IMG/VR virus record: IMGVR_UViG_3300011977_000424
Origin: an uncultured virus (IMG/VR IMGVR_UViG_3300011977_000424)
Taxonomy: Duplodnaviria > Heunggongvirae > Uroviricota > Caudoviricetes
Length of the DNA stretch: 20,000 nt
Direction: 5' to 3' (one strand)
A program made the translations under genes and the position numbers. Under the pieces are notes generated by a model. It searched no databases. It had not been told where the DNA came from and saw only the letters and a list, made by a program, of their open reading frames with translations. Below, in pieces: positions 1 through 19,377 of this stretch. Position 1 is the stretch's first letter. Every line of letters starts with the position of its first letter.

Positions 1-480
1 TCCGATCTTATTCAGGAAGCGGATAAGGTAGTGCTTAACCTTTCTCCACAAACTAAATTCCTCGGGTGTAGCCGGGCCTTCTTCGGCAATGTCGGAAAAT
101 ACTTCCTGTGCGGCCTCGCTGTATGGGTTGTTGTCGGTGAGGTCTACACCTCCTAACTCCTCTGCCTTATCCAGTATGCGGTCGCGCAACTCCTTGCCGG
201 CACTCTCAAAGATGAAGGTGCCAAACTGCTTCACGGCATCGTCGCTACCTAACAGTGCGCGCAATCCCTCGTGGCCTAACTTCTCATGGAACACGGTGCG
301 CTTTACATCGTCTACTCCCTGCATAGCCGGTGTATAGACATGCACACTGCCGTCCTTCCAGTCGTACCAACCTTTGGTACCGTCGCCTCCTTGGATCTCA
401 CGGCGTAAGCTCTCGTTGCTGATTGTGCTCATGTTGTCGAAGTGCACGGGCATGCCTCCCAACTGCTCGGCGGTTTCCTG
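1..480 (-). other. Zincin-like metallopeptidase domain (polyvalent MPTase type), possibly truncated by the window edge
   Basis: KGWYD...VHVY...DVKRTVFHEKLGHEGLRALLG (HExxxH at 271-288), then EAAQEVFSDIAE and SLWRKVK. Confidence 0.8.
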
Positions 481-3400
481 TGCGGCCTCAACCTGCAAGC
501 GGTACTGTTTATCGCCTTCCTGGTCGGTGAGCTTCGTCACCACAACGGCGCGTGCGCCTTTGAGCTCGGGAATAACCTTGCCGGCGGCCTCAACGCTGAA
601 ACCGTTGCCTAAGCTCTCCTGCACCCAGTTCTCCAGTTCACTTTGTGTAAAGCCTTTCTGGTAGGCACGTATCTTGCCTTTCTTATCGGTAACAAGTATC
701 TCGCTCGGGCTGTCAAGCTCTATCTTCTGCTTCTGTTTCTCGATCTCCTTCGCGTCGCGCACATTGATGATAAGCTTACCACCTGTTTTCATGTGGCGTA
801 CCATGTCACTTAGTACGTTGGCTCTCCAGTCGTCGGGAATAACATTGAGCACGGCGTTGCTGATTACTACGTCGTAGTCCTTATCAATGGCGGCATAGTC
901 GGTGAAGGTGGGGGCGCCTGCCTCGCGGTGTTCGGCTGGGTATGGTTCCACATCATCTACGGTAAAGTTGAATCCGGCGCTCTGGCCGTTCTCACTCTGT
1001 CCGCGTAACGTCATGGTACCATAGCCTAAGCCACTGCTGGCATCAAGGACGGTGAGCGTCTTACCGGTGCGCTCCTGCTCGCGCTGCATCCAGTTGCCTA
1101 TCTTGATATAGGTTTTCTCGGTGCTGCGTATCTGCGTGGAGTGCTGGCCGGTGCTCGTCTCTTGATCCTCAATCCAACGCTGGCCAAACTCATCAAACAG
1201 TGCGGTGCTACTGCGTTTGCTGATGTCGTTTGTACTATTTTTGTTACCCTCGTCGCCTTCGGGCTTCTTATCCTTGTTGTCGGCTGTGAGTTTCTTATAT
1301 TCAGCGTCGATTTTCTTCTTTTGCTCCAGGGCCTCGGCAAGCTCGGCTTCACGTGGGAAATTAGGTTCTCCGGGGTCGCCTCCCTCCAACTTATGTTTGT
1401 ATTCATCAATGGCCTGCTGATAAGCTTTGCCATTGTTGATTACTTTCTCCAACATGCGGCGGTAGGTCATACCGGCGGCGGTGTCGTCGTCGCTGAGCAC
1501 ACCTTCGTACTTAATCTTTGATGGGGCACGGAGAATCACTTTGCGGACTGGCTGAGTGCTGATTTTGAGATCAGTAGTAGGCGTGCCTACCTCAGCATCT
1601 ATGCCAAATCCGGACAGTTTCACCATTTCACCCTTCTTCAGCAAAGAATGAATATACTTGCCTGCCTCTCCGGCCTTGGTGAACTTCTGGCCCTCGGGGT
1701 GCTTATCAGAAGTGACGGTGACAGTAGAAGGATATTTACCTTCTTTGTCTGGCTTGAAGCCTGCGTCGGTGATAATCTCCTGGTCCCTGGCGTTGCCTCG
1801 TTTCAATGCCTCGAAGTTGGAAAGTGAGCGCTTATCACGGTAGAACTGATTAACTCGCTGCTCATGCTCTACCATGTATTGGCGCTTCGCCTTAATCAAC
1901 TTGTCCACCTTCTTATCCATCTTGGACTTGTCAAGGATGATTGGATTGCCGGACAGAAGGGCGACAACGCTTGCTGGGTCGAAATCGCTATCATCACCGG
2001 CGGCTCCTTCGTCAAAGCTTCGTGCCTCGCTTCCATTGCTGGCGCTTACCTTAAAGGCGTCGATCATCCTCTGTTTGGTAGACACAAGCTGATATTTATA
2101 GAGATCCAAACTTTGCTCGGTAGCATAGTAGAACACTTCTACTTTGTCATCGTTCTTGTCTCTTGCAAGCCAGTTGCCCTGACGGGCGCCACGGCCATTC
2201 TCCTGTGTCACGTTGGCTGGGTTCCAACTCATATCTACATGGTGGATAGCAACCATGCGCTGTTGAATATTCAGTCCTGTACCGGCGTTCTTAGCACCTC
2301 CAATGAGAATACGAACGGTACCGTCGTTCATCTTCTTACAAAGCTCAGCGCGTTTCTTGTCTGTATTAGCCTTGTGAATATCGAAAATCTCTTCCTTGGG
2401 GATTCCGTAATCAGTGGAGAGACGATTGATGAAGTCTGTGTATACGTCATATTCCTTCTTACCGTCGGGCACACCAAGGTCACAGAAAATAACTTGTGTG
2501 CCTTTGTCAGCACTGAATTTGTCGTATATTTTCTTTACGTTGTCACACACGTAGGTAATCTTACCTCCGTCGCCGTCGTCCATATCGGGCTTCACCAACT
2601 TAACGTTGATGGCTGCCTTAGTACTGATATTGGTTGCCAACAATGCCCACGGTTGATCCTGTCCACTCGCTGTTTTGTCGGGGATACCAAAATATCCTCC
2701 ATGATGGTTCCTGACCATGTTCAACACTTCACGGGTAATCTCTTTAAGTGAATCACTGGCTGGTACCGTGACGACGTGGACATTCATCTTCGGCTTGGGC
2801 AACTGTAAGTTGAGGTCGTTGCGCACATCGGCTACCTCTGTATAGAGCTTCGCAAGCTCTGCCAGGTTTTCAAAGTTCCTAAACCGTGCCTTGTCTACCA
2901 ATTCGCCTTTGTAGTCGAACTCGCCTTCGGTAGAACACTCTGCAAAGTTGGCGGCCCAGGCATCAAAGGTATTGAAGCCAAGCTCCTTCATCTTGTTGGG
3001 GCGTATATACTGGAACAGACTGTACAACTCCACAAGTGAGTTACTGATGGTGGTACCTGAAGCAAGTATCAATCCTTGGTCGCCTTGGTGAAGCTGCTGC
3101 AGATAGCGTGCTCCACAAAGCAAGGCCATAGAGCGTGCACTTCCTTCGGGGTTGCTAAGTCCGGCGATCCTGTTATGGGTTGTGACGTATGCAAGGTTCT
3201 TGAATTGCTGGCACTCGTCCACAAACAGATAGTCCACGCCTAAGTCCTCAAAGGTAAACTCGCGGTCTACCTTCCTATCTAATAGACGCTGGACCTTTAC
3301 CTTTAGTCGTTCTCTTCGCTTCTCCAGTGCCTTCTGTTGGCGCTTGGTGAGTTGAGAGTTGCCGGACGCCTGCTTTAGTATTTCTATCGCTGCTTCAAGC

Positions 3401-6400
3401 TGGTCGATCTGTTCTTGCAAAATACCGGTCTCTATTTCTTCCTTGTGGGGCAACATACCATATTGCTCATGGCTCAGGATAACGCAATCCCAGTCGTTCA
3501 CGGCAATGCGTGAAAGCATCTGCTTGCGGTTCTCCTTCTTGAAGTCGTTGTCCATAGGAGCAAGCACACGCGCAGTAGGGAAGGCTTCGTGAAACTCCTT
3601 CACCATCTGTGGCACGGTAGCCTTCAATGCAATAATCATTGGCTTTTTGGCAATGCCCATACGGCGCATTTCCATAATAGCACTGTGCATAACCAACGTC
3701 TTGCCGGCGCCGACAATATGATCAATAATGCCTCCGCGATTGTTAATGAGCATCCAAACGGCATCCTTCTGATGAGGGCGCAAGGTCTTACCCTGCAAGC
3801 CTGGTATCTGGAGGTGGCTTCCGTCAAACTTCGGAATAACGGTAGTATTAAACTTCTCGTTATAAATCTTGGTTAGGCGGTCGGAAATATCGTGGTGCGC
3901 ACTGATAAAGTCCTCGAATTTCTCGCGGATCTGGTCTATCTTATCGTTGGCACTGTTGGTCTCGTCCTCGTCGGTATATTCGTGGCCGTCTCTGTCTTTA
4001 AGTCTGACAGTTACCTTATTGTTCGTTAATGCGGCCTCTATGAGTTTTTGATTATTGCAGTGCTCGGTCTTCCACTCGTTGGCTTTGCCGGATGTCTCAT
4101 AGCCTTCAATATAGACGTTAAACACGTCGGCTTCTGGACTATAAACAATACCGGTGTTGGCATTATAGCGGTCTACGCCTAACAGGTCTTGAATGAAGGC
4201 GGTATAGATGTCGTCGGGTACCCAACGGGCTCCCATGTGGATGGCAATACCAATAAATGGGATGTCGGCTGGCTGCACGGCTTTCAGAGCCTCAACATTC
4301 CTGTCAAAGCGGTGATCCATCTTCGCGGCGGCCTCAGCTTCTTTCAGCTTGGCTTTAACATTGCCACTAAGATATAAGTCGCGCATTTGGTAGCCTCCAC
4401 CGGGTTCCTCAAACACAACGCCGTCTACCTTGTCTATCCAGTCCGGGCCTAACTTAGATTCCATGTACTCGGGGCGTATCTCTCCATACTCGGCGAGTGA
4501 CAACGTAATCATTTCAGAAGGCGTGCTGGCGCTGTCAAGGTCAATCTTGCTCTTGATGGTACTCTTCTCGAAGATGTCGCTAAGGCCGGCAAACTTGCCG
4601 TCGTTCATCTTCTCCAGGGATAGGATGCTATAACCGTCGATGTCCTTCTTGATAAAGTCGTTCTTCTTATCATTCAGACGGCCATAGTGGGCTACAAAGT
4701 TGTTGTAGGCCTGTTTGAGCTTGGCACGCAACAGTTTCACCTGTGCTTCTTCTGCTCCTCCTATCTCCTCGGCAATGAGCTGCTTCATGGCGGTGCGCAC
4801 GGGGATCATCAGGCGTATCTTGGCGGCCTGGCTCGCAAGTTTAGGATCGGCAAGGAACTGGAAGGTTCCTGATTTGTCGCCTTTGGGCTTGGATAGGTAG
4901 CCAAACTTGCCGTTCTGCTCCACAATGTTACCGTCGCCTTGGTAGTCACCATTGCCTACATACTCTTCGCGCACTGCGTCGTAAACCTGACGTGAGCTCT
5001 TGGTGGTATCGTAAAGCTTACCCTTGCGGCTGGCTGGTACCACGTATTTGTCGATGAGGTCTGTGAGCTTCTGGGCTATCTCGGCGGTGCTCAGGTCTGA
5101 GGTGAGGCCGTAAGCGTCGCCTCTGTACTGGTTACCAAGTTTGATGTTGCCGATAACCATTTCAGGATGCTTTCCGTAATAGCCATTGTAGTGCACAACG
5201 GCGCTTTCCCACTTCTGCTGTATCTCTTCTTCATAGTCGCTCAGGAATGGAGTTTCTATGTCAGATAGGTACTGCTCGGTGCGTGTGGCTGTCTTATCCT
5301 CTCCGTCTTTATACTTGCGGAAGAAGATAATATCAGTAACAGGATTGGTACCGGCTCCTTTGAAGGCGTTATCCGGCAAACGCACGGCTCCAAGTATCTC
5401 ACAGTTGTCTGCGATATACTTGCGCACAAGCTGGTTGCCCTTCGTGTCCATGATGGCATTGCTGGTCATTATATAACCAATGCCTCCGGGCTTCAAAAGG
5501 CTGATGTTCTTAACCGTGAAATAGTTGTGGATGCGGCTCTGAGCAAACTTCTTGACGGGTTCACTGGTGCCCTTCCATGACGGATCGTTGACGGCAATAT
5601 CGCCAAATGGGATATTACTGCCTACTACGCTCATACTATTGTCAGGGAATCCGGCATCCTGGAAACCGATAATCCTAATGTTGGCATCGGGATAGAGCAA
5701 CTTCACAATATTACCGGTGAGCCAATCAAGTTCGGTACCGTAGATCTGGGTACGCTGCTGCATGCTCTTAGGCATGGTTCCTTCAAGCACACCACTACCG
5801 ATACTGCCGTCAAGGAAACTGCCTCCTCCCTTGTAGCCTGCACGGTCAAGGAAGTGGTTAATGCCTCGGGCTACATCAACAGGGGTGTAATAGCTCGTCA
5901 GGGCGGCATGTTGGATGTCGTCAAGTAGTTTGTGCTCGTTGTGAGGGTCTATTTCCTCGAGTATGTCGGCAAGCTTAGCTACATCTGCTGATCCACGACG
6001 GCGCATGTAGTCGTAATCATACCACATACTGCCGTCGGTGCCTCCCCATCCTCTGAACTTGCCAAGCTCGGCACGCTCCTCGGGGGTGGCTGGTCTGCCC
6101 TGGCGCAAACAGTCTCTCAGTATCTCAAGGGCGCGTATGTTAGTGCGCAAGCGCTGGCCGGCGTTCATGTTGTCGATGTCGGTGGCATCGTCGGGATAGA
6201 GATAGTTGCGCGTGTTAAGCGGCTTCTCTTTCTCGCTTGCGGTCTTGGTACTGTGATCGTCCGGCCTTATATCGTCCTTTACTTCTGGCTTGGGCTTTGA
6301 GGCTGGTTTGCTTGCTGGCGTCTTGCTGCCAGTCGGCGCTGGCCGTCCTCCACGATCTGGTTTATCCAGTCCGCCATTGACGGGTCGCTGTCCTCCTCGT

Positions 6401-9400
6401 CCTCCGTCTGCATGTACTGTTCCTGCATCTGGGCTCTCAGTATCTCCGAAATCTGATCTGTCGAATAAGTCCCCTGAACTCGTAGGTCGTGTTCCTGGTC
6501 GTCGTACGCTTCCTGAGTGTCCTCCAGGCTTGCTTCCAGTTGTCCCTGCTGAAGAAGCTGCTCCAGTTCCTCCGGCCTGAACTCCTGCATCAGATCCAGT
6601 CTTTGCTGTGCCCAATACTCCCGGCTTTGGATTAGCTGGTTTCTCAGCTCCTCCACCTGTTGCTGTTGTTTCTTGTCCATGGTTATCTGTCTTTACTTCA
6701 TGTTCTGTTGGCAAAGATACGGAATTTTCCGGCTTCTTGGTCTCAGGAAGGGTAATATCTTCCCAATCGGCCACTTCATACATCACTGGAGCCAGGCCGG
6801 TATCAAGCACGGGCTGGCCGGTTGTCTCAAAGTCGGTAACGGTGGCCGGCTCGCCTTTGTATATCACCTTATCACCGATATTCAGTTTCGGGTGCTCGGC
6901 ATGGGCGGCGTTCTCACGTGCAAGTAGCTCCTCGGCGGCATCTATCTGGCCCTTCACCTTTTCAAGCTCTATTTCAAAATGACGGTGCTTGTTCAGTGTA
7001 TGGCTGCCATTCATGCTGTTTGTTAGCTGGTCTCTGAGATCTCTTAATCTCGTCAGCTCTTGTTTGAGAACATCGGCGGTATCAGTAGCATGGTCAGATG
7101 CATATCTAACTGCGGCTTTGGCGTTCACATCCTTCAAGGCGCTAAAGAACTTTGATGAGCTCAGTGTGAGAAGGTTCTTCTCGCTTAGATAATCTTCATC
7201 GGTAGGCTTTAATGGGCTGGCGGCTTCATCTTGCTTGGCTGCCTTCCTCTTCTCGTAGTCGGCAATAAGCTTGTTAGCCTCATCAACGGCTTTCTTTACA
7301 AGCTGGGTAAACTTCTCATCACCTACGGCGCTCTGTGCCTCAGCTATCCAACGTTTCAGATAGTCGCGCTGTTCATCGTTCTGCATGGGTTGTTTCCCAC
7401 TGCGGATGGCATCAACCATATCACGCACAATGAAGTTGCGCATGAGCTCGAAATCTTCAATACGTTTGAGCACATGTTTGCTGCCTTGTGTCAATGCAAG
7501 GTCTATCTTGGCCTGCTCAAGTATCTTGTTGATGCGTGCAAGGTCGGGGCGTCCGCACTCGTTCCATACGAAATAGAACTTATCGCGCTCGGGGTCACCC
7601 TTCATTCCTCTCAATACGGCATATTCGTAGGTAGGCTCGTCGATATAGTGAAGATGGTCGCCGGCATCGCTAAGGATCTCATAACCTTTCTTTCCGTCGT
7701 GTGACTTCTGCATCTTCACTTGGTTCTTACCCTCGCGTGCCCACTGGTCGATGTATTCAGCAACAGTCTTATAACCTTCTCCCCAGTCCTGCTTCTCATT
7801 CAGGAGCATCTTAGCCATTTCGCGCTTGCGTGGGGTAAGGGTATTAAGATACTGCTCCACTGCATCGGCGGTGCGGTTATCATTGCCTCCTTCCTGTGGT
7901 GCTGGATCCTCGGCGGCTGGTTGCACGGTGTCGGTAGTCTTAATGCCTAACTGCTCGTCGGCTTTCGGGTTCTGGGGCTCTATCATGTCAAACAAGGATG
8001 GCTCCTGAACTGTTGCCTTCTTTGATTTGGCTGCCTTGGTGGGCTTAGACTTTGGCGCTGGTGTCTCGGGAACTTCATAGCCAGTACTCCTCGCTAAACG
8101 CTTCATATCCTCTAAGAAGGTGGAAAGCGGTGTATCAACGGCTGTGAAATGGTTACTCTCGCTTCGTCCTTCTCCCTGCAGGCGGTACATGATACGGCCT
8201 AACACAAGGTCGTCAAAGTCGTTGCGGTCAAGATTCAAATTGATGTAGATATACTTGCCGGTGCCCGGAAGGTCTATCTTCATATAGATGTCACCTCCTA
8301 TCGGGGCAAGGTTAGCATTGGCAAGGTTGCGTTTGTTGGTCTTTTGGCCAAGGGCGGCATAAATCTCCTTTGCCAATCGGTTGGCGTCCTTCAACGCTAA
8401 CTTTTCTGCCGACTTCATATAACCATAACTCTCATGCTCGGGGCTATTGGGGTCATGCTTGTAGAAGCCTAACAGGGCAAGTTGCTCATCTACCTTCTCT
8501 AACTGCTCATCAATCTTCTTCTGGGCGTCGTTTACTTCATCCTCAGTTGTTGCTGTTTCTGCAACACTTTCTGCTTGGCTTGCAATAGCCTCTGCTTGGC
8601 TTGCAATAGCCTCTGTATTTGCTGGTTCGTTTCCTGTTTCATCGTTATTCTGTTTACCTAATACTGATTCTGCAAACTTCTTGGCATCGGCCTCTCCGGA
8701 TTCAAAAACAAATCCTGCCTTGCCAAAGCTGGAGTAATAGCCTCCAAAACTCTTTACCTGTTTCTTAAGATCAAGGAACTTGTCTCTGTCGAAACGCTCG
8801 GTGAAGTTCACTACCCAAATATCAATGCCTTTCTTCTTGTGCCAACGCTGAGTGATGGAGTAGCCGGGGTTATCCTCGGCCTTGTCTATCATTTCTCCTC
8901 CGTCGGTACTGCCAATGGTGGGTGACGGGATGGGCTCGGGTGCCTGCGCCTCCACGGTGGGGGCTTCGGGCTCTTCTGGCTTGTTCGCTGCCTTGCCACT
9001 GTTCTCAGGCTTTGAAGCCTGAGCTACTTCATTGCGGCGGTTCACCTCTGCCAACAGACTGTCTGCATCCGTAACCTTGATTGGCTCGGCGGCTGTTTTC
9101 TCCTCCTTGGTTGGATCAAACTTCTCAACGTCGAAGTTGTCTACCTCGTCGTGGCTCGACATTTCCTTGCGATACTCCTTCATATCGTCCATCTGTCGTG
9201 CTGCATCGTAGAAAGCTTTGAGATATGGGCGTATCTTATCGCCACAGTCCTCAATCATTCTGCGTGCATACTCGGCAAACTTCCTTGCGCCGGCCTCAAT
9301 ATGGTACATGGCCATCTGACTACCAATCATGAACAGTTCAGGATCAATACCTGAGTTGAGGTTGTTCAACTTATCGCGCATGCGCTTCTTCAACTGCTCA

Positions 9401-12400
9401 TAAGCATCATCGGTGATGATCTTATTATTGGTCTTGCGCTTTTTGCTGCCTCCGGCCTTGGATTGCTCCTGCTTCTTCTCGGCGTCTTTCTTGGCCTTCT
9501 GTTGCTTTTGCTTTTCCTGATTGGCTTGCTCTGCCTGCTTCTGCTCTTCTGGGCGCACATGGTCCATATAGTCTTGAAGGGCATCACGCTCACCCATAGC
9601 TTTCAAGAGTGTGGAGAATAAATCTACACTCTTGTTGCCTCGGAATGGTCCGGTCTGCTCGCCTTTCTCCACTCGTGGGGTAAGCTCGTCAATAGCTTGG
9701 TCGCGGTCACGGATAGCGGCATTGATGAGGCCGGGCTTCATCAGCTTGCCTTGCTTCTTTAAGTTCGCGGCCATAATGTTATATGCCTGTTTGGTGATAG
9801 CATCGGTGGTACCGGCAATATCAGCCTCAGCAACATTCATGGATGTTACAGGGAGATACTTCGGACCTGAGACGACATTATAAGTGCCGTCCTCGTTCAC
9901 GCTATCTATCTTAGCCATCTGGCCGCGATACATAACAAGTTCACCCTTTTTATACTTGCTCTCAGGCTTCTCTTCTGGTGCTGACTTAGGCTTGGGAATA
10001 CCACCTATAACAAGGTGCTGCTGCACGTAGGCTTTATCCTTTGCAAGCTTGTAATCGGCAAAGGGCTTGGTCTTGCGGTGGCTGCTCTCTACCCAGGCCT
10101 TGAAGTCGTCCTTGCTCACCTCGGTAACGGTGCCTACCTTCCATCCCTTTTCATACTGTGACTTGTAAGCTTCAATGGCGGCTTCCTTGGATGGGAAACC
10201 GTACATTACCTTGTGCTCATCAAAACTGCCGTCGCTCTGGTTCACCTGGTCTACAACATACACATTTCCGGTCGTAGGATCGTCACTGAGATAGACGTCG
10301 ATATGGTCGCCGTCTACACCTTCGGTGCCTTTGATGTAACCATAGTCATAGTTCATCTTTACGCTCCATTCCTTGCCGTCCTTGCCATGGCCGGTGCGCG
10401 TGGATCCATTCGGATTTTCAATAGTAATGTCGTAACCGTCAATCTTCACATGGCCCTTCTTATAGTTGCCGGCTTCCTTTTGCGCGTCGGTCGGGTGGGT
10501 GTCCACCTCCTTGCGCGCTGCTGCAATATCGCCACTGCTGGCACTCTTTTCACGAGTGTCATTGCCAGGTGCATTTTTCTGCTCATTTCTTTGCATGGTA
10601 GCGGAATTTTCACTACCTTTGCCTTCAGAAGAAGCGTTATTCTCTTGCGTAGGAAGGAGGTCCGGCACATCATTTTGATGTTCAGCTAAGCGCCTGTCAG
10701 AGCTGTTGGAGAGTAACGCTTGCTTTGTGTATTTACGTCTGTACTCCGTAAGCTTCTGCTTGATCTTGTTCTCGTTATTATAGTGGCTGCTTACTGAAAC
10801 TTCAAGGCCTTCTTGTGATACTGTAACTGATGTAAAATACTTGGTGGTGGTGCCGTCAGACTTCTTGAACGTCTTTACGAATACATAGGAATAGGGGCGC
10901 TCGGTTATCGTGCCTTCCTTAGCTTCGCTTGGCTCTATGAAAATAACATCTGGGTCGGTAAGCGTAAGAGAAACCATACCAAACTCCTTTGTCCTTTTCT
11001 TATCCACAAGCTTATTGTACTGATGTTCTCCCATCTTCACCTTACCGATAGGTGTGCCTATCTGGTTGTTAAAGCCAAATGTAGACATCCAATTTTCAGG
11101 TGTAAGGCTTATCTCAGGGTCTACTACGGCGCCCTGCGACATGGCCTTAATTATTGAGTCTGCTTTATCTACAGAGAGGGGGGCTTCACTCTCCGGCTCC
11201 ATCACGGCAATATCATCGCCGCTGGTGCCTACTTCTCCTGATTTTGCTTCTGACTGTACAGGTACGCCTCCGTTAGCATGGCCATTGCCAGTTGGTACTG
11301 GCGCTTGCGCTGGCTTACGTTCCGGTTCTGCAGTATGCGTACCTTCAACGCCGGGCTGAGAAGGTTCTTTTCTTGGCACAGGCGTTTCGCCTTGGCCATT
11401 TCCTGTTTTAGCTGCTGGTCGTTGAGGCTCTTGATCCATTCGCCTGCTGCCTGCAACTGTGGGTTGTTGCTGATTTTCTCCATTTTCTATTTCGTTTAAC
11501 AGTTCTGCCTGTTCGGGCAACATCTGGTTAATAGCTTCCTCATAGGCTTGACGCTCTTCCTCACGTTTGGCAATATCATCGGCAATAAGTCCGTCGATGT
11601 AAGCTTCTACTTCAGGACTGGGTTCATCGGCGCTCATGGCATCAAGATAGTCTTGATACTCCTGGATCTTCGCCTGACGCTCGGCTGCTTCCTCCTCCAT
11701 GTATTGTCTCTCCTGCTCTTCCTGAGCACGAAGGAACTCTTCGGCATCGGCAATGCGGTTGCGGACTATCATGTACGTGATATCCGATGGTTTGCGTGCT
11801 GAGCTGAGCAAGTCAAGCAAGGCGTTGCGGATCTCCTGGGTGCCTACGTTCTCAAAGCCAGGAGTGCTAAGGGCGGATTCCCACATTTCGTGAACAATGG
11901 CATCTACACTCTTCCCATGTCCCTTGGGCGCAAGGAAATAGTTAATAGTGTTGCTGTCATATCCATGGCCAATGCCACGACGGGTGCCAAGCTCTTGCTG
12001 TAAACCGGTGTACTTAACGCCTCCTCGCTCTATGCCTTCCCAGTTGATGGTATGGGGGCCAAGGTGGCTTGCCACAAATTCTTCAAGGGTCTGTGGCTCT
12101 TCTGCGTCAAGCAAGAATCCGGCCTCGGTACCGTCGTACACCTCGTGGGCCTTCTTCCAAAGGTCTTGCACGTTCTTTGCACCGGAAAGGGCGGCTGCTC
12201 GCTGCTCTTCGGGTGGTAGCTTCTTAATCTCTTCGGCGTTGCGCTGGGCATAGATGTTGGTAAGGGCGCCTAATGTGTCCTTCAACTGTTTCTGTGTCTG
12301 GAGAAGTGTTTTCTCCTGCTGCTCCAGTGCGGCCATTCTGTTGGCGGCCTCTTGGATCTCTACGTCGCTGAGCTCGGCGGCTCCATCCTCGTAGTCACCG

Positions 12401-15400
12401 ATAAGGCGGCGCACGTCGGCCATTTCGCTGCCTACTCCGTTACTCCACTGCTTTTGCAGCTCCATGCGCTTATCGGTAATGAAACGCTCAGCGTCACCTT
12501 GGGTGGGGAAGTTAGCGAGTAAGCTCTCGCCACTCAACTCTTTTGGCTTCTCAGGTGCCAACACTTGCGGATTGGCCTTGGCTACCTCTGCGCGTGCATG
12601 CTCAACGGCCTTGCCTACTTTGTTGGCTCGCTCCTGGGCAAACTGCGCACGCTGCTCACCGGTCATAACGCCTTTGCGGATCTCTCCCCACTTGCGCTGC
12701 CGTTGCAGATTGTCGGAAAGCTCTTCTTGCAATCGCTTGATGAGTGCGTCTTTCTGCGCTTTCTGCTCTGGAGTGTACATATCGCCGTTGGTCTCCATCC
12801 ATTGGGTGTGGCGGTCCAGGTCGAAACGGATGCGGCGCTCATGCTCCTTCAACTGGTCCTTCTCGGCCTGTATATTCTTCAGCACTCCGTCGGTCTTGCC
12901 GTCGGGGGCGGTCGTTCTCAGATACTCGGCGGCTGCGCTTGCGTCGGTTCCCTTAGCTGAATAGTCGGGGTGGCCTTCATTGTAGCCAACAATACCGGTA
13001 GTGAAACGATCCTTCTGCTCATTGGCCTTGTTCTGCTGGGCTTCCTGCTGGAGCTGGGCTTCTATCTTGGCATAGTCGGCCTCAGCTACATAACCGGAGG
13101 CTTCCAGTGGGCTCAGGGCAAAACGGCTGCCGTCCTCTCCCTCGAAGATAGTGTTGCCGTTTGGATCCTGGCCGGCTACCTTCACATGAAGGTCTTTGCC
13201 GGCCACTCTCAGGTCGGTTTCCATACCTGGCATTAGTCCTACGCTGGCTCTCAGGTTCCTATACTGATCGTCCAACTGCATGGTGAAGGTGTCCACATCG
13301 GCTTTCAATGCGTCGTTCAACGGCACGGCCTCACCAAGCTGCTTGATACGTCTCACTGGTACCTGTTGTGTCTGGCCGTCCTCATCAACAACAATAATAC
13401 CTCCGTACTGGTTGGTGACGTCACCACTCTTCACGTAGGCTTCGGTACCGTCGTCAAGCAATACGGGAATAATAGTGCCCTGGTCGCTGACTACGGTCTG
13501 CAATTGCTCTCGCCGTTCCTGCTCATAGTCGGCGGTCTGCTGATAGATGCTGTCATCCTGTCCTGCCTGTGCTTCCTGCACATCAAGATAAGCCTCAACG
13601 GCTTCTCTTTGGTAGGGCGTGAGGTTCTGACCGTCCAGGAACTGTTGCACGGCATCATCGTCACCGGCCTCAACAAGTGCGTTAAGGTCGTGAACAAACT
13701 TCGCGTTCTTTGGCTCTGACATTGGGAAAAGCATGTCCATACGGTGACGGGCAAGTCTATTCTCATATTCCAGTTGTGGCAATACGCTCCTGTCCTCGGC
13801 GGCTGATGCTCCGTGGTTATAGGCTGCCTCTCTACGCTGCTGGGTAGGTGTCAATGGTGCTTCGCCTTCTCCGGCGCCTGTGCCTCCCTGTGGTGCTTCT
13901 GGGCCTTGTCCTGCCGGCTGTTGTCCTGCTGGTCCTACTGGCTTTTCAGGAGAAACACCACCGTCCCCACCGGTGCCTCCGCTATCGACTGGGGGCAATC
14001 CGCGTGGGGCGTCGGGTGGTGTCGGGACGTTGGGAGATTCGTCTATATCTTGTGGCGCCTGGTCGGCTGGCTGTTCAGGTTCCTGTGACTGTTGTGCTCC
14101 TGGGCCTGCCTGCTGGCGCTCTTCTGTTGCATGGTCGTAAATGGTTGGTGGCGCGTTCTGAATGTCGGCGCGCAATGCTTCCTGATAAGCCTTAACAATA
14201 CGTTGTTCTGCTGGCGTGCGGAAATGCCCGTCGCCGGCATCTACTACTTGCTCTCCTTCCTGCAAAAGCGATGTGGCCTCACGCTTTGTGTGGCCCTTCA
14301 TAGCTGCTTGAAGTGCACCTTTGCTCAGGCCCATGGATGCTTCAAAGTTCTCTGCATACATTGTGGCTGCCTCGGTGCCTTGCTGGAGATCATTGTAAAC
14401 CTGGCGGTAGGAGTTGAAAAGATTAGCCTCATCTTCGGTGAGCTCTTCACCTCGGTTGCGGCGCTCGGCTACGTCTGAGAACTTCTTGGCGTTCTGGAAC
14501 AGATAGACGGCTTTCTTCTCTTCATCGGTGAGCTCTTCACCTCGCTGTTGCTTGGAAACAACTTGCTCGTACTGTCGGCGAAGGTCGTTCTGGAGATAGA
14601 TATTGTTATACATCCCCTCCAGGGCTCCGGTAGTGTTCACCTCTTTCTGCCAACGTAGTCTGTCGTTGTCTTTGTCTGCATCTGCGGCGCTATCGTAGTG
14701 GCGGCGGTCTATAACTCCTCCATCTTGGTTGTATGTTGTCAGGGTGGCTCCGTCGCCGTATTCGTCGGGTGTAACCTCGCTGTTGATAACAGGTGAGAAG
14801 GCATCTGGGCGCTTGCCCTCGATAACATTCATCATCTTGGCCTTGGTAGTCTCTGGAACATCTGGATCACGAAGTAACTGCATATACTCGGGGGTGTGCT
14901 GGCGCATAACCTCGTAGTCTGCATCTGCCTTGCTCCTTACTCCTGGCTGCTCTGCCTCTTGTGGGCCTCGGCTGTCCTGGCCCATCTTCAAGAAGGCATC
15001 GTAAAGACCTGCATATCCCTTTTCATTCAACACATGAAGGTCGTCGTCGTTGAATTGAAACTTTCGGTTGAACTCTTGCTGATTACGGAAGTTGAGATAC
15101 TTGGTAGCCTTGTGGGGCAAGCCTAACAGGTTCAAAGAAACATAGCTCTCTAAGAAACTTTCTGCGGCATCCTTGCCGGTGGGTGTGAAGGAAGGATCGG
15201 AGGCCATACGCTCCAGGAGTGAAGATGTGCCCATAATACCGGCGTCGGCGGCTGTGCCTAATTGACCTCCAAGCACATTAGCCCACACACCTTTGCCTCT
15301 GGTAAGGAACTGGCCCACGGTGTTTCCCTGCATGAGTGCACCCATGGCGGCGTTTTTAGCGGTGTTCACAACGGTATGGCCTACTATCTTGCCTACTGAT

Positions 15401-19347: not shown

Positions 19348-19377
19348 TTTGTGAACAAAAATAATGTATTAGCTTTG
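19348..19377. promoter_or_regulatory. Overlapping divergent Bacteroidetes-type promoters
   Basis: Plus strand: TTTG (19348-19351)-N18-TAGCTTTG (19370-19377)-CC. Minus strand: TATTTTTG (complement of 19356-19363), 27 nt upstream of ATG 19328. Both lie in an AT-rich 87-nt intergenic gap. Confidence 0.7.

Follow-up and report, generated by a model that had tools for sequence, protein, structure and literature searches.

The linkers of a giant phage gene probably hold the remains of several small transcription units whose continued expression is predicted. In the window, by which we mean the whole 20,000-nucleotide stretch of DNA analysed here, three short reading frames in the +1 frame and two promoter-like boxes lie in the linkers of a single gene (Table 1), and from comparison of sequences we put the probability of this reading at about 0.65. 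By the same comparison, the layout of hidden frames and antisense box recurs in many related phages, and the spacers of the giant gene are likely dual-use DNA with three conserved small frames.

Table 1. Positions of the features of the window that are discussed in the text
Feature	Position	Strand	Remarks
Giant polyvalent (DarB-like) ORF	1..17457	-	7,103 aa in total, running past the window edge at position 1; G000 C1 40359-61670
N6 methylase + SNF2 helicase dyad	2176..5895	-	Pfam N6_Mtase, SNF2-rel_dom, Helicase_C
In-frame ATG where standalone methylase-helicases start	6166..6168	-	in the giant ORF's main frame
Hidden +1 ORF, 133 aa, TnpV-like helical protein	6279..6680	-	ends AAG-TAA
Internal sense -7 box TATCTTTG	6712..6719	-	32 nt upstream of the ATG at 6680; -33 position without TTTG
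Hidden +1 ORF, 36 aa, Gln/Lys/Leu-rich	8532..8642	-	ends AAG-TAA; least certain of the three
InPase domain	10087..10488	-	Pfam PF18823, E 8e-56
Antisense Bacteroidota-type -7 box TACCTTTG	10614..10621	+	128 nt past the end of PBECR2; a TTTG lies about 20 nt upstream
Predicted structured antisense RNA	10627..10725	+	10632-10644 pairs with 10709-10721 as closing stem; consensus is multi-branched; ends inferred
PBECR2, a predicted RNase domain within the giant protein	10750..11052	-	Pfam PF18810, 28.6 bits, cut-off 27.1
Hidden +1 ORF, 84 aa, no known family	11229..11483	-	ends AAG-TAG

The Giant Gene

The long frame encodes a DarB-like polyvalent protein of a Bacteroidota provirus. Like the polyvalent proteins of Iyer et al. 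2017 (PMC5512222), P1 DarB and Bcep22 gp75, it has an N6 methylase fused with an SNF2 helicase and carries InPase and PBECR2 in the same polypeptide, and its gene adjoins virion genes. Passages of PMC9024508 and PMC9144972 report packaging in the virion and injection for P1 DarB and JC1 gp69, and by analogy the window's giant protein would be packaged and injected as well. The main text of Iyer et al. 2017 (PMC5512222) mentions none of TnpV, DUF1896, antisense, overlap, promoter or linker.

Three Small Frames in the Linkers

The earlier note had pointed to three nested ORFs with a common frame and A-rich leaders, and re-reading the coordinates confirmed both: all three are minus-strand ORFs in +1 relative to the giant ORF, with 14-16 A in each 30-nt leader. 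The AAG-TAR ending is likewise present on all three, but its standing as a shared signal did not survive, and we call it a coincidence because it is seen in only 4 of 34 distinct relatives. Among the 29 +1 ORFs, these three are the sole ones with a positive, protein-like score; the remainder, including a 75-aa ORF at 10673-10446, were discarded as non-protein-like by score.

Chance within the gene was assessed with 1,000 synonymous shuffles of the giant gene. ORF length is not unusual, a 133-aa +1 ORF arising in 47% of the shuffles (P=0.47); AAG-TAR at all three ends (P=0.007) and an A-rich leader on all three (P=0.013) are rarer, both being features picked post hoc. Sense boxes number 8 vs 4.3 in shuffles (P=0.06), and antisense boxes show no excess (6 vs 5.8, P=0.50). 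These nulls are weak, so the window by itself is no more than suggestive, and it is the comparative evidence that raises the pattern above chance. The relatives are not independent of each other, and the counts given here therefore overstate significance. Three contig sets yielded near-identical pieces, with no usable variants across the hidden ORFs.

Constraint on the +1 frame in relatives supports selection on all three ORFs. The 84-aa ORF, very probably a real gene, found no match in the atlas search and has nested homologues in two relatives, where identity is higher in the +1 frame than in the main frame (48/84 vs 28/84 in L007; 49/80 vs 35/80 in L187); mismatches with the former fall 23/21/47 on the +1 codon positions. 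The suggestion that it partners the nuclease was rejected, the loci of both homologues having no adjoining nuclease; the small families that occupy its slot are unrelated to each other and vary with the upstream module. The 36-aa frame, a gene that we judge probably real, is open, and has a Met upstream, in the window and 21 relatives. It is open in 12/12 cases vs 5.2 expected, with the synonymous sites of the main frame frozen, and its mismatches are flat across codon positions (7/7/9).

A TnpV-Like Gene ahead of the Methylase-Helicase

Comparison shows the 133-aa frame to be a predicted TnpV-like gene, fixed directly ahead of the methylase-helicase across phage groups, and we consider it almost certainly real. 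In 49 of 51 giant relatives, against a background of 48 in 1,029 windows, the methylase has a corresponding +1 ORF in front of it. Of 15 annotated phage records, 12 contain such an ORF without calling it, and the other three have none under the rule used. In a blastn variation scan that covered the relatives' nested genes, variation at main-frame positions 1/2/3 was 125/66/54 in the nested gene of L013 vs 86/44/322 in the methylase; L010, L022 and L027 repeat this pattern, substitutions tracking the +1 frame in the nested gene. Profile A3 matches the hidden frames of three proteobacterial phages outside its training set (E 1.5e-6 to 2.7e-5) and further hidden frames in additional phage records, and in the proteobacterial phages the leaders of the hidden genes are Shine-Dalgarno-like. 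The same profile gave no matches in 301 Bacteroidales genomes, a search that had no positive control and is uninformative.

Among the window ORF and its relatives, Pfam PF14198 TnpV, a family of unknown function, is the best or a recurring match. The window's protein, which sits entirely within another gene, scores 13.9 bits against a cut-off of 27 (E 0.054; 0.0023 within its own genome) and is therefore filed as TnpV-like only; transitive homology is provided by nested relatives L051 (27.5 bits) and L054 (30.5 bits), which exceed the cut-off. Of 101 called proteins from the A3 search, 28 match TnpV at E<=0.001 and nine exceed the cut-off. A direct homologue search with the 133-aa protein returned none at E<=0.01 among 19 candidates, the PDB sequence search gave no relevant match, and the atlas search placed TnpV at rank 24 (score 0.78), which we treat as a lead. 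The structure model has a pLDDT of 88.5.

A link to DUF1896 (PF08989; PDB 2APL) is softer. In Bacteroidota conjugative elements this small helical gene overlaps the start of a standalone methylase-helicase; one protein matches the Pfam models of TnpV and DUF1896 over the same stretch, and 2APL, compared for a common N-terminal helical fold, ranks fourth against the 133-aa model (Z 6.0, in the tool's noise range; rmsd 2.2, 63 aligned). The 133-aa protein has no Pfam hit to DUF1896, and the hhalign probability of 0.2% is not significant. Unlike the window's ORF, DUF1896 is a separate gene, not nested, in +2 rather than +1 phase to its methylase, which it precedes in only 10 of 47 non-giant loci.

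Both boxes quoted in the earlier note are present in their contexts and fit TAnnTTTG, the -7 consensus of Bacteroidota primary-sigma promoters (PMC7366714). The TTTG near -33 accompanies the 10614 box, and is enriched after nucleases, but is absent for the 6712 box. Of 25 relatives, 12 have a strict sense box upstream of the 133-aa family and 13 have none, while 32 of 750 background windows contain one; this supports a promoter-like element ahead of this gene family. The proposed internal start at 6168 was not supported, as the ATG is conserved in only 9 of 33 giants (any in-frame ATG nearby, 11/33); of the standalone methylase-helicase starts, 38 of 44 map to query positions 9-12.

The Nuclease Domain and Its Antisense Box

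The pairing of nuclease and antisense promoter box held up well. Behind BECR-fold nuclease domains such a box occurs in 18 of 18 cases, vs 3 of 48 for other domains, and in a held-out set behind 12 of 16 nucleases vs 5 of 59 in the comparison, the strict box being lacking after the other four. Antisense boxes are depleted overall (152 vs 206 expected) save after nucleases. Two genes terminate directly behind the nuclease, and there the box is located past the stop codon. We consider it likely that the antisense promoter is active. For the predicted RNA, alignment A5 contains compensatory changes on both sides in 12 of 23 pairs (0/500 shuffles), the consensus structure being derived from the same alignment; folded as a single sequence, the window's RNA does only modestly better than its shuffles (z=-1.6; 13/200). 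An Rfam search gave no family and two chance-level matches. The tails behind different nuclease families differ from each other. Separately, a Treponema PBECR domain is followed by a sigma-70-like antisense site, a single instance and no more than chance would give (2 found, 1.3 expected).

Standalone Units and the Proposed Growth of the Gene

Judged by such comparisons, the giant gene likely became larger as its frame came to run through entire small transcription units, and an origin of the hidden units by absorption is somewhat favoured. Standalone small-gene-plus-enzyme units do exist: DUF1896 with a methylase-helicase, and a promoter, a 41-42-aa gene and a kinase in 11 of 12 loci, the twelfth having the small family inside a long frame. 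The kinase unit is not a module of the window's giant gene, and the hidden ORF of L007 has no detectable relation to the kinase-linked small gene. TnpV-type proteins are also called as separate genes. A solo PBECR2/3 gene was not found among 17 matches in 301 genomes. The wider proposal of cargo captured with its regulators keeps the +1 genes, boxes and standalone units, and loses the AAG-TAR ending, the 6168 start and the 84-aa/nuclease pair. The +1 phase would be favoured because stops in the read-through frame can all be removed with the small protein intact (stops not removable synonymously, 0/276 vs 32/194).

Discussion

We propose that small transcription units were overrun by the giant frame and now serve as its linkers. 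The 6712 promoter would allow the TnpV-like protein to be made without the full transcript, and the protein may be a partner of the methylase-helicase, either inhibitor or chaperone. The 10614 promoter would give a structured RNA of ~95 nt (about 70-120) that keeps the nuclease part in check, either through base-pairing to the giant mRNA or through binding to the nuclease itself. A safeguard role of the hidden units is tentative, at slightly under even odds.

The hidden genes and RNA could instead be real without being absorbed safeguards, having arisen or been inserted in tolerant linkers and serving the giant protein's assembly, packaging or transcript control. P1 DarB requires helper proteins (table in PMC9024508), Ulx and DdrB aiding its packaging, and the changing occupants of the 84-aa slot, the missing solo nuclease unit and a phase unlike the DUF1896 arrangement point the same way. 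We find this rather unlikely, as TnpV-type proteins occur as separate called genes, the kinase unit shows a standalone-to-fused series, the box lies past the stop in the two C-terminal nuclease genes, and P1 lacks a small gene of this kind upstream of darB, in contrast to the hidden ORF preceding the window's methylase-helicase. Ulx was dismissed as a homologue of the 133-aa protein on gene position, not sequence, ulx being downstream of darB.

The absorbed units might also be relics in decay, whose open +1 frames and boxes survive only because linkers diverge slowly from their ancestral sequence; the tails of L160 and L165, which keep RNA-like sequence and have lost the box, and the flat mismatches of the 36-aa frame would suit such decay. 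It is improbable given the wobble-type variation of close relatives in the +1 frame, retention in phages of Bacteroidota and of Proteobacteria alike, the latter with Shine-Dalgarno-like leaders, and the stop codons, which are TAA or TAG in 34 of 34 hidden genes and TGA in 608 of 1,179 other +1 ORFs. An origin by chance or codon bias, in which acidic, Gly/Thr-rich linkers happen to keep +1 open and to contain the boxes, agrees with the shuffled ORF lengths, but is very improbable in view of the positional recurrence, the +1 identity exceeding main-frame identity, the Pfam TnpV matches, the frozen synonymous sites and the depletion of antisense boxes outside nuclease tails.

The absorbed-unit arrangement resembles known systems in part. 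Type I toxin-antitoxin loci have a 3'-convergent antisense RNA, and the window's predicted RNA likewise points convergently at the end of a domain predicted to be toxic, but this domain lies within a 7,103-aa virion-type protein, not a small standalone toxin gene. Type III systems have a structured RNA antitoxin, with RNA repeats upstream on the same strand; the window's RNA, also predicted to be structured, is single copy, downstream, antisense and without an Rfam match. Embedded Rz/Rz1 spanin genes, as passages of PMC9144972 describe them, place a whole phage gene within another in a shifted frame, as here, whereas the window has several unrelated genes and an antisense unit in one frame's linkers.

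The linkers of polyvalent proteins are usually treated as filler, and the hidden genes are uncalled in public records. If our reading is true, many phages, cultured ones included, carry several missed proteins and a missed RNA in their largest gene; it offers a route for building giant multi-domain genes and a means by which the host could survive producing a protein packed with toxic domains, and it suggests a role for TnpV and DUF1896, two families of unknown function. More speculatively, and in our view doubtful, polyvalent genes in general may be fused operons in which every cargo enzyme is accompanied by a partner gene hidden in +1, and every BECR-fold RNase by a matching structured antisense RNA under a host-type promoter. 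These RNAs would then form an undescribed class of RNA antitoxin, and TnpV/DUF1896 proteins would be regulators of the methylase-helicase.

Nested Frames in the Giant Gene

The provirus record is 64,213 bases long, the window being its end, and the product of the giant frame belongs to the polyvalent, DarB-like proteins as PMC5512222 defines them. Pfam assigns InPase, N6 methylase, SNF2 and helicase C domains to it, and its closest relatives in named genomes lie on contigs of Prevotella and other Bacteroidales. Elsewhere on the contig of the full record (G000 C1), a 433-aa ORF that by eye resembles the reverse transcriptase of a diversity-generating retroelement sits beside a 2,286-aa gene.

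The earlier note had proposed that this gene absorbed whole transcription units in frame, and the three hidden +1 ORFs, their leaders and AAG-TAR ends, and both promoter-like boxes (TAnnTTTG) are found where it placed them. Taken by itself, this gene makes a weak case: against 1,000 synonymous codon shuffles, neither the 133-aa ORF (P=0.47) nor the sense (P=0.06) or antisense boxes (P=0.50) stood out, and a P of about 0.01 was reached only by features picked after the fact. When ORFs are scored for composition, with enzyme regions as the training set, the three are the sole positives (47.5, 11.5 and 1.4) among 29 +1 ORFs of at least 30 aa.

Features of the giant gene, its surroundings and related loci
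Feature	Location	Strand	Remark
Giant frame	start 17457	minus	7,103 aa
PBECR2 domain of giant	11052-10750	minus	Pfam
133-aa ORF	6680-6279	minus	+1
84-aa ORF	11483-11229	minus	+1
36-aa ORF	8642-8532	minus	+1
Sense box	6719-6712	minus
Antisense box	10614-10621	plus	after PBECR2
Predicted RNA	from about 10627
Back-to-back boxes	19363-19377
433-aa ORF	G000 C1 20201-21502
TACCTTTGC box	G000 C1 43281	minus
TACCTTTGC box	G000 C1 43394	plus
Sense box and +1 ORF	L007 8724-8897		kinase module
+1 ORF at zeta-toxin end	L008 9219-9413
+1 ORF at zeta-toxin end	L060 8265-8507
Tandem hairpin units	L063 5640-5770		antisense
orf33/orf23 region	L145 (PBC5) 7800-9300
Sigma-70-like site	L157 1108-1080	minus
Terminator-like stem	L157 987-958

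Conservation of the Hidden Genes

We gathered 136 loci, reduced to 98 distinct ones with 700 nt upstream of the methylase; 51 of these, including two copies of this phage, are giant-type, with the main frame open for at least 400 aa upstream. A +1 ATG ORF of 77-190 aa, ending at most 200 nt from the methylase, occurs in 49 of the 51, against 48 of 1,029 background windows; of the misses, L060 has the gene with its end further upstream (E 9e-20), and in the part of L047 examined the frame is open, with no ATG. Within the gene, relatives differ from one another in an inverted pattern: counts of variation at main-frame positions 1/2/3 are 125/66/54 (L013), 102/47/42 (L010), 140/85/70 (L022) and 37/17/15 (L027), and by the same measure the L013 methylase gives 86/44/322. 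The window's copy has higher +1 than main-frame identity in all four pairs (45 vs. 25, 43 vs. 38, 31 vs. 18 and 32 vs. 16). The leaders of hidden genes are A-rich (43% against 30%), in agreement with Bacteroidota translation as described in PMC7366714, and the stop is TAA or TAG in 34 of 34. Similarity makes the 133-aa protein, predicted to form a confident helical domain, TnpV-like; its own score is below the Pfam cut-off, and the tie comes through its relatives.

A long upstream frame is present in 15 annotated phage records; 12 of these have a +1 frame at the TnpV-like spot, none of them with a separate gene call for it. A profile backs eight of the 12 with varying strength (E 1e-10 to 2e-3), some scored against a small candidate set; the Bcep22 frame has just a weak Pfam TnpV match, and those of 8P and Y7 get no backing from similarity. 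In phage PBC5, annotated orf33 terminates in hidden TnpV-like sequence via a frame change and orf23 begins at the methylase; the change, which splits the giant gene, is due either to faulty sequencing or to a natural fusion. The best viral fold match of the 133-aa protein, Q8W6J4_2 (E 0.92), is probably the PBC5 orf33 protein, judged from its length. By eye, a PBECR-like stretch lies in the main frame between orf33 and orf23. Phage Itty13 (L155) has three opposite-strand ORFs annotated across the methylase match and hidden gene.

A blind sliding scan of the giant flagged the 84-aa and 36-aa regions alone, out of 83 informative windows. Both homologues of the 84-aa protein are nested in +1, with +1 likeness exceeding main-frame likeness. 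A nuclease directly follows neither of the two, and the ORF's supposed role as nuclease partner fell away; in L013 a close PBECR2 relative has a different hidden ORF before it, and, judged by eye, which ORF family occupies the slot goes with the upstream module. Two zeta-toxin domains also have a +1 ORF after them; those of L008 and L060, 65-81 aa long, begin at the domain end within the giant frame and are candidate hidden antitoxins. In 21 relatives the 36-aa frame is open and has a Met upstream, and it is open in 12 of 12 distinct anchor-matched loci against 5.2 expected; main-frame synonymous sites are frozen across it (e.g., GCA in 12/12), and an adjoining control varies freely. It is the least certain of the three, because constraint at the DNA or RNA level could yield the same pattern.

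Promoter-Like Boxes and a Predicted RNA

A set of 35 related giants contains more sense boxes than expected (218 vs. 132) and fewer antisense boxes (152 vs. 206). Comparison supports both placements suggested earlier. Strict sense boxes stand ahead of the TnpV-like ATG in 12 of 25 close relatives; the count for windows is 32 of 750. With domains taken from Pfam scans, 18/18 BECR-fold domains have an antisense box no more than 250 nt behind them, against 3/48 others. The 18 include the window's, one blast-defined homologue and LPD3 (presumably of this group); several of the boxes were known before the list was fixed. In a held-out set from 301 genomes, with one duplicate match removed, the box follows 12 of 16 nucleases, against 5 of 59. 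In L158 and L161, a gene stop lies 78 and 6 nt past the nuclease domain with the box beyond it, as it should if a gene once ended there naturally and was read through afterwards.

Two more TACCTTTGC boxes lie in the C-terminal part of the giant, outside the window, and the back-to-back boxes between a minus-strand 167-aa gene and a plus-strand 194-aa gene are likely a divergent promoter pair. On a Treponema contig (L157), a PBECR2-like domain has a sigma-70-like antisense site after it, a single case at chance level, with a terminator-like stem at 987-958.

The predicted RNA aligns with six relatives; both sides change in 12 of 23 pairs, and 96.8% of cells pair, with shuffled and slid controls nowhere near. 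The structure was derived from the alignment used to test it, and the sequences are related; the covariation is thus supportive of an RNA structure, not proof. A second RNA family has a long hairpin ahead of a U-rich run, and an Rfam search with the predicted RNA gave no match. L063 has two MuF_C-tail-type antisense hairpin units in tandem.

Standalone Units and Origin

Standalone pairs of small gene and enzyme, expected if modules were captured whole, exist for methylase-helicase and kinase units; among 17 matches in 301 genomes, there was no solo PBECR2/3 gene. Among 47 non-giant loci, 10 (four Pfam-confirmed) have a DUF1896-sized gene overlapping the start of a standalone methylase-helicase, as does one annotated record; the phase is +2, unlike that of the nested TnpV-like gene, and the tie between the two is soft. 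For a kinase module that relative L007 contains, 11 of 12 genome loci consist of a box followed by a 41-42-aa ORF that overlaps a short kinase frame in +1; in the twelfth, the ORF's small family is hidden within a long frame. In L007 itself, the sense box and a 43-58-aa +1 ORF stand immediately ahead of the Kinase-PolyVal domain; standalone units of this layout occur in Paludibacteraceae genomes (L175-L186). With synonymous changes in eight ordinary genes of this phage, 0 of 276 read-through stops are fixed for a small gene in +1, against 32 of 194 in +2; the constant +1 phase can be explained, since all +1 read-through stops are removable synonymously. The proposed internal start at 6168 coincides with the standalone enzyme start and is retained in just 9 of 33 giants.

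Overall, our sequence comparisons demonstrate that the dual coding is conserved and the boxes are enriched by position. The hidden units would be expressed from internal promoters, the TnpV-like protein may act as a partner, the RNA might restrain the nuclease, and the arrangement may have arisen by read-through. Searches of mainly open-access literature, together with main-text passages of PMC5512222, PMC8788219, PMC7366714, PMC9024508 and PMC9144972, turned up neither nested genes nor antisense units described for polyvalent proteins; an earlier mention may exist. This is apparently an undescribed architecture, real and widespread, inside a known gene class.
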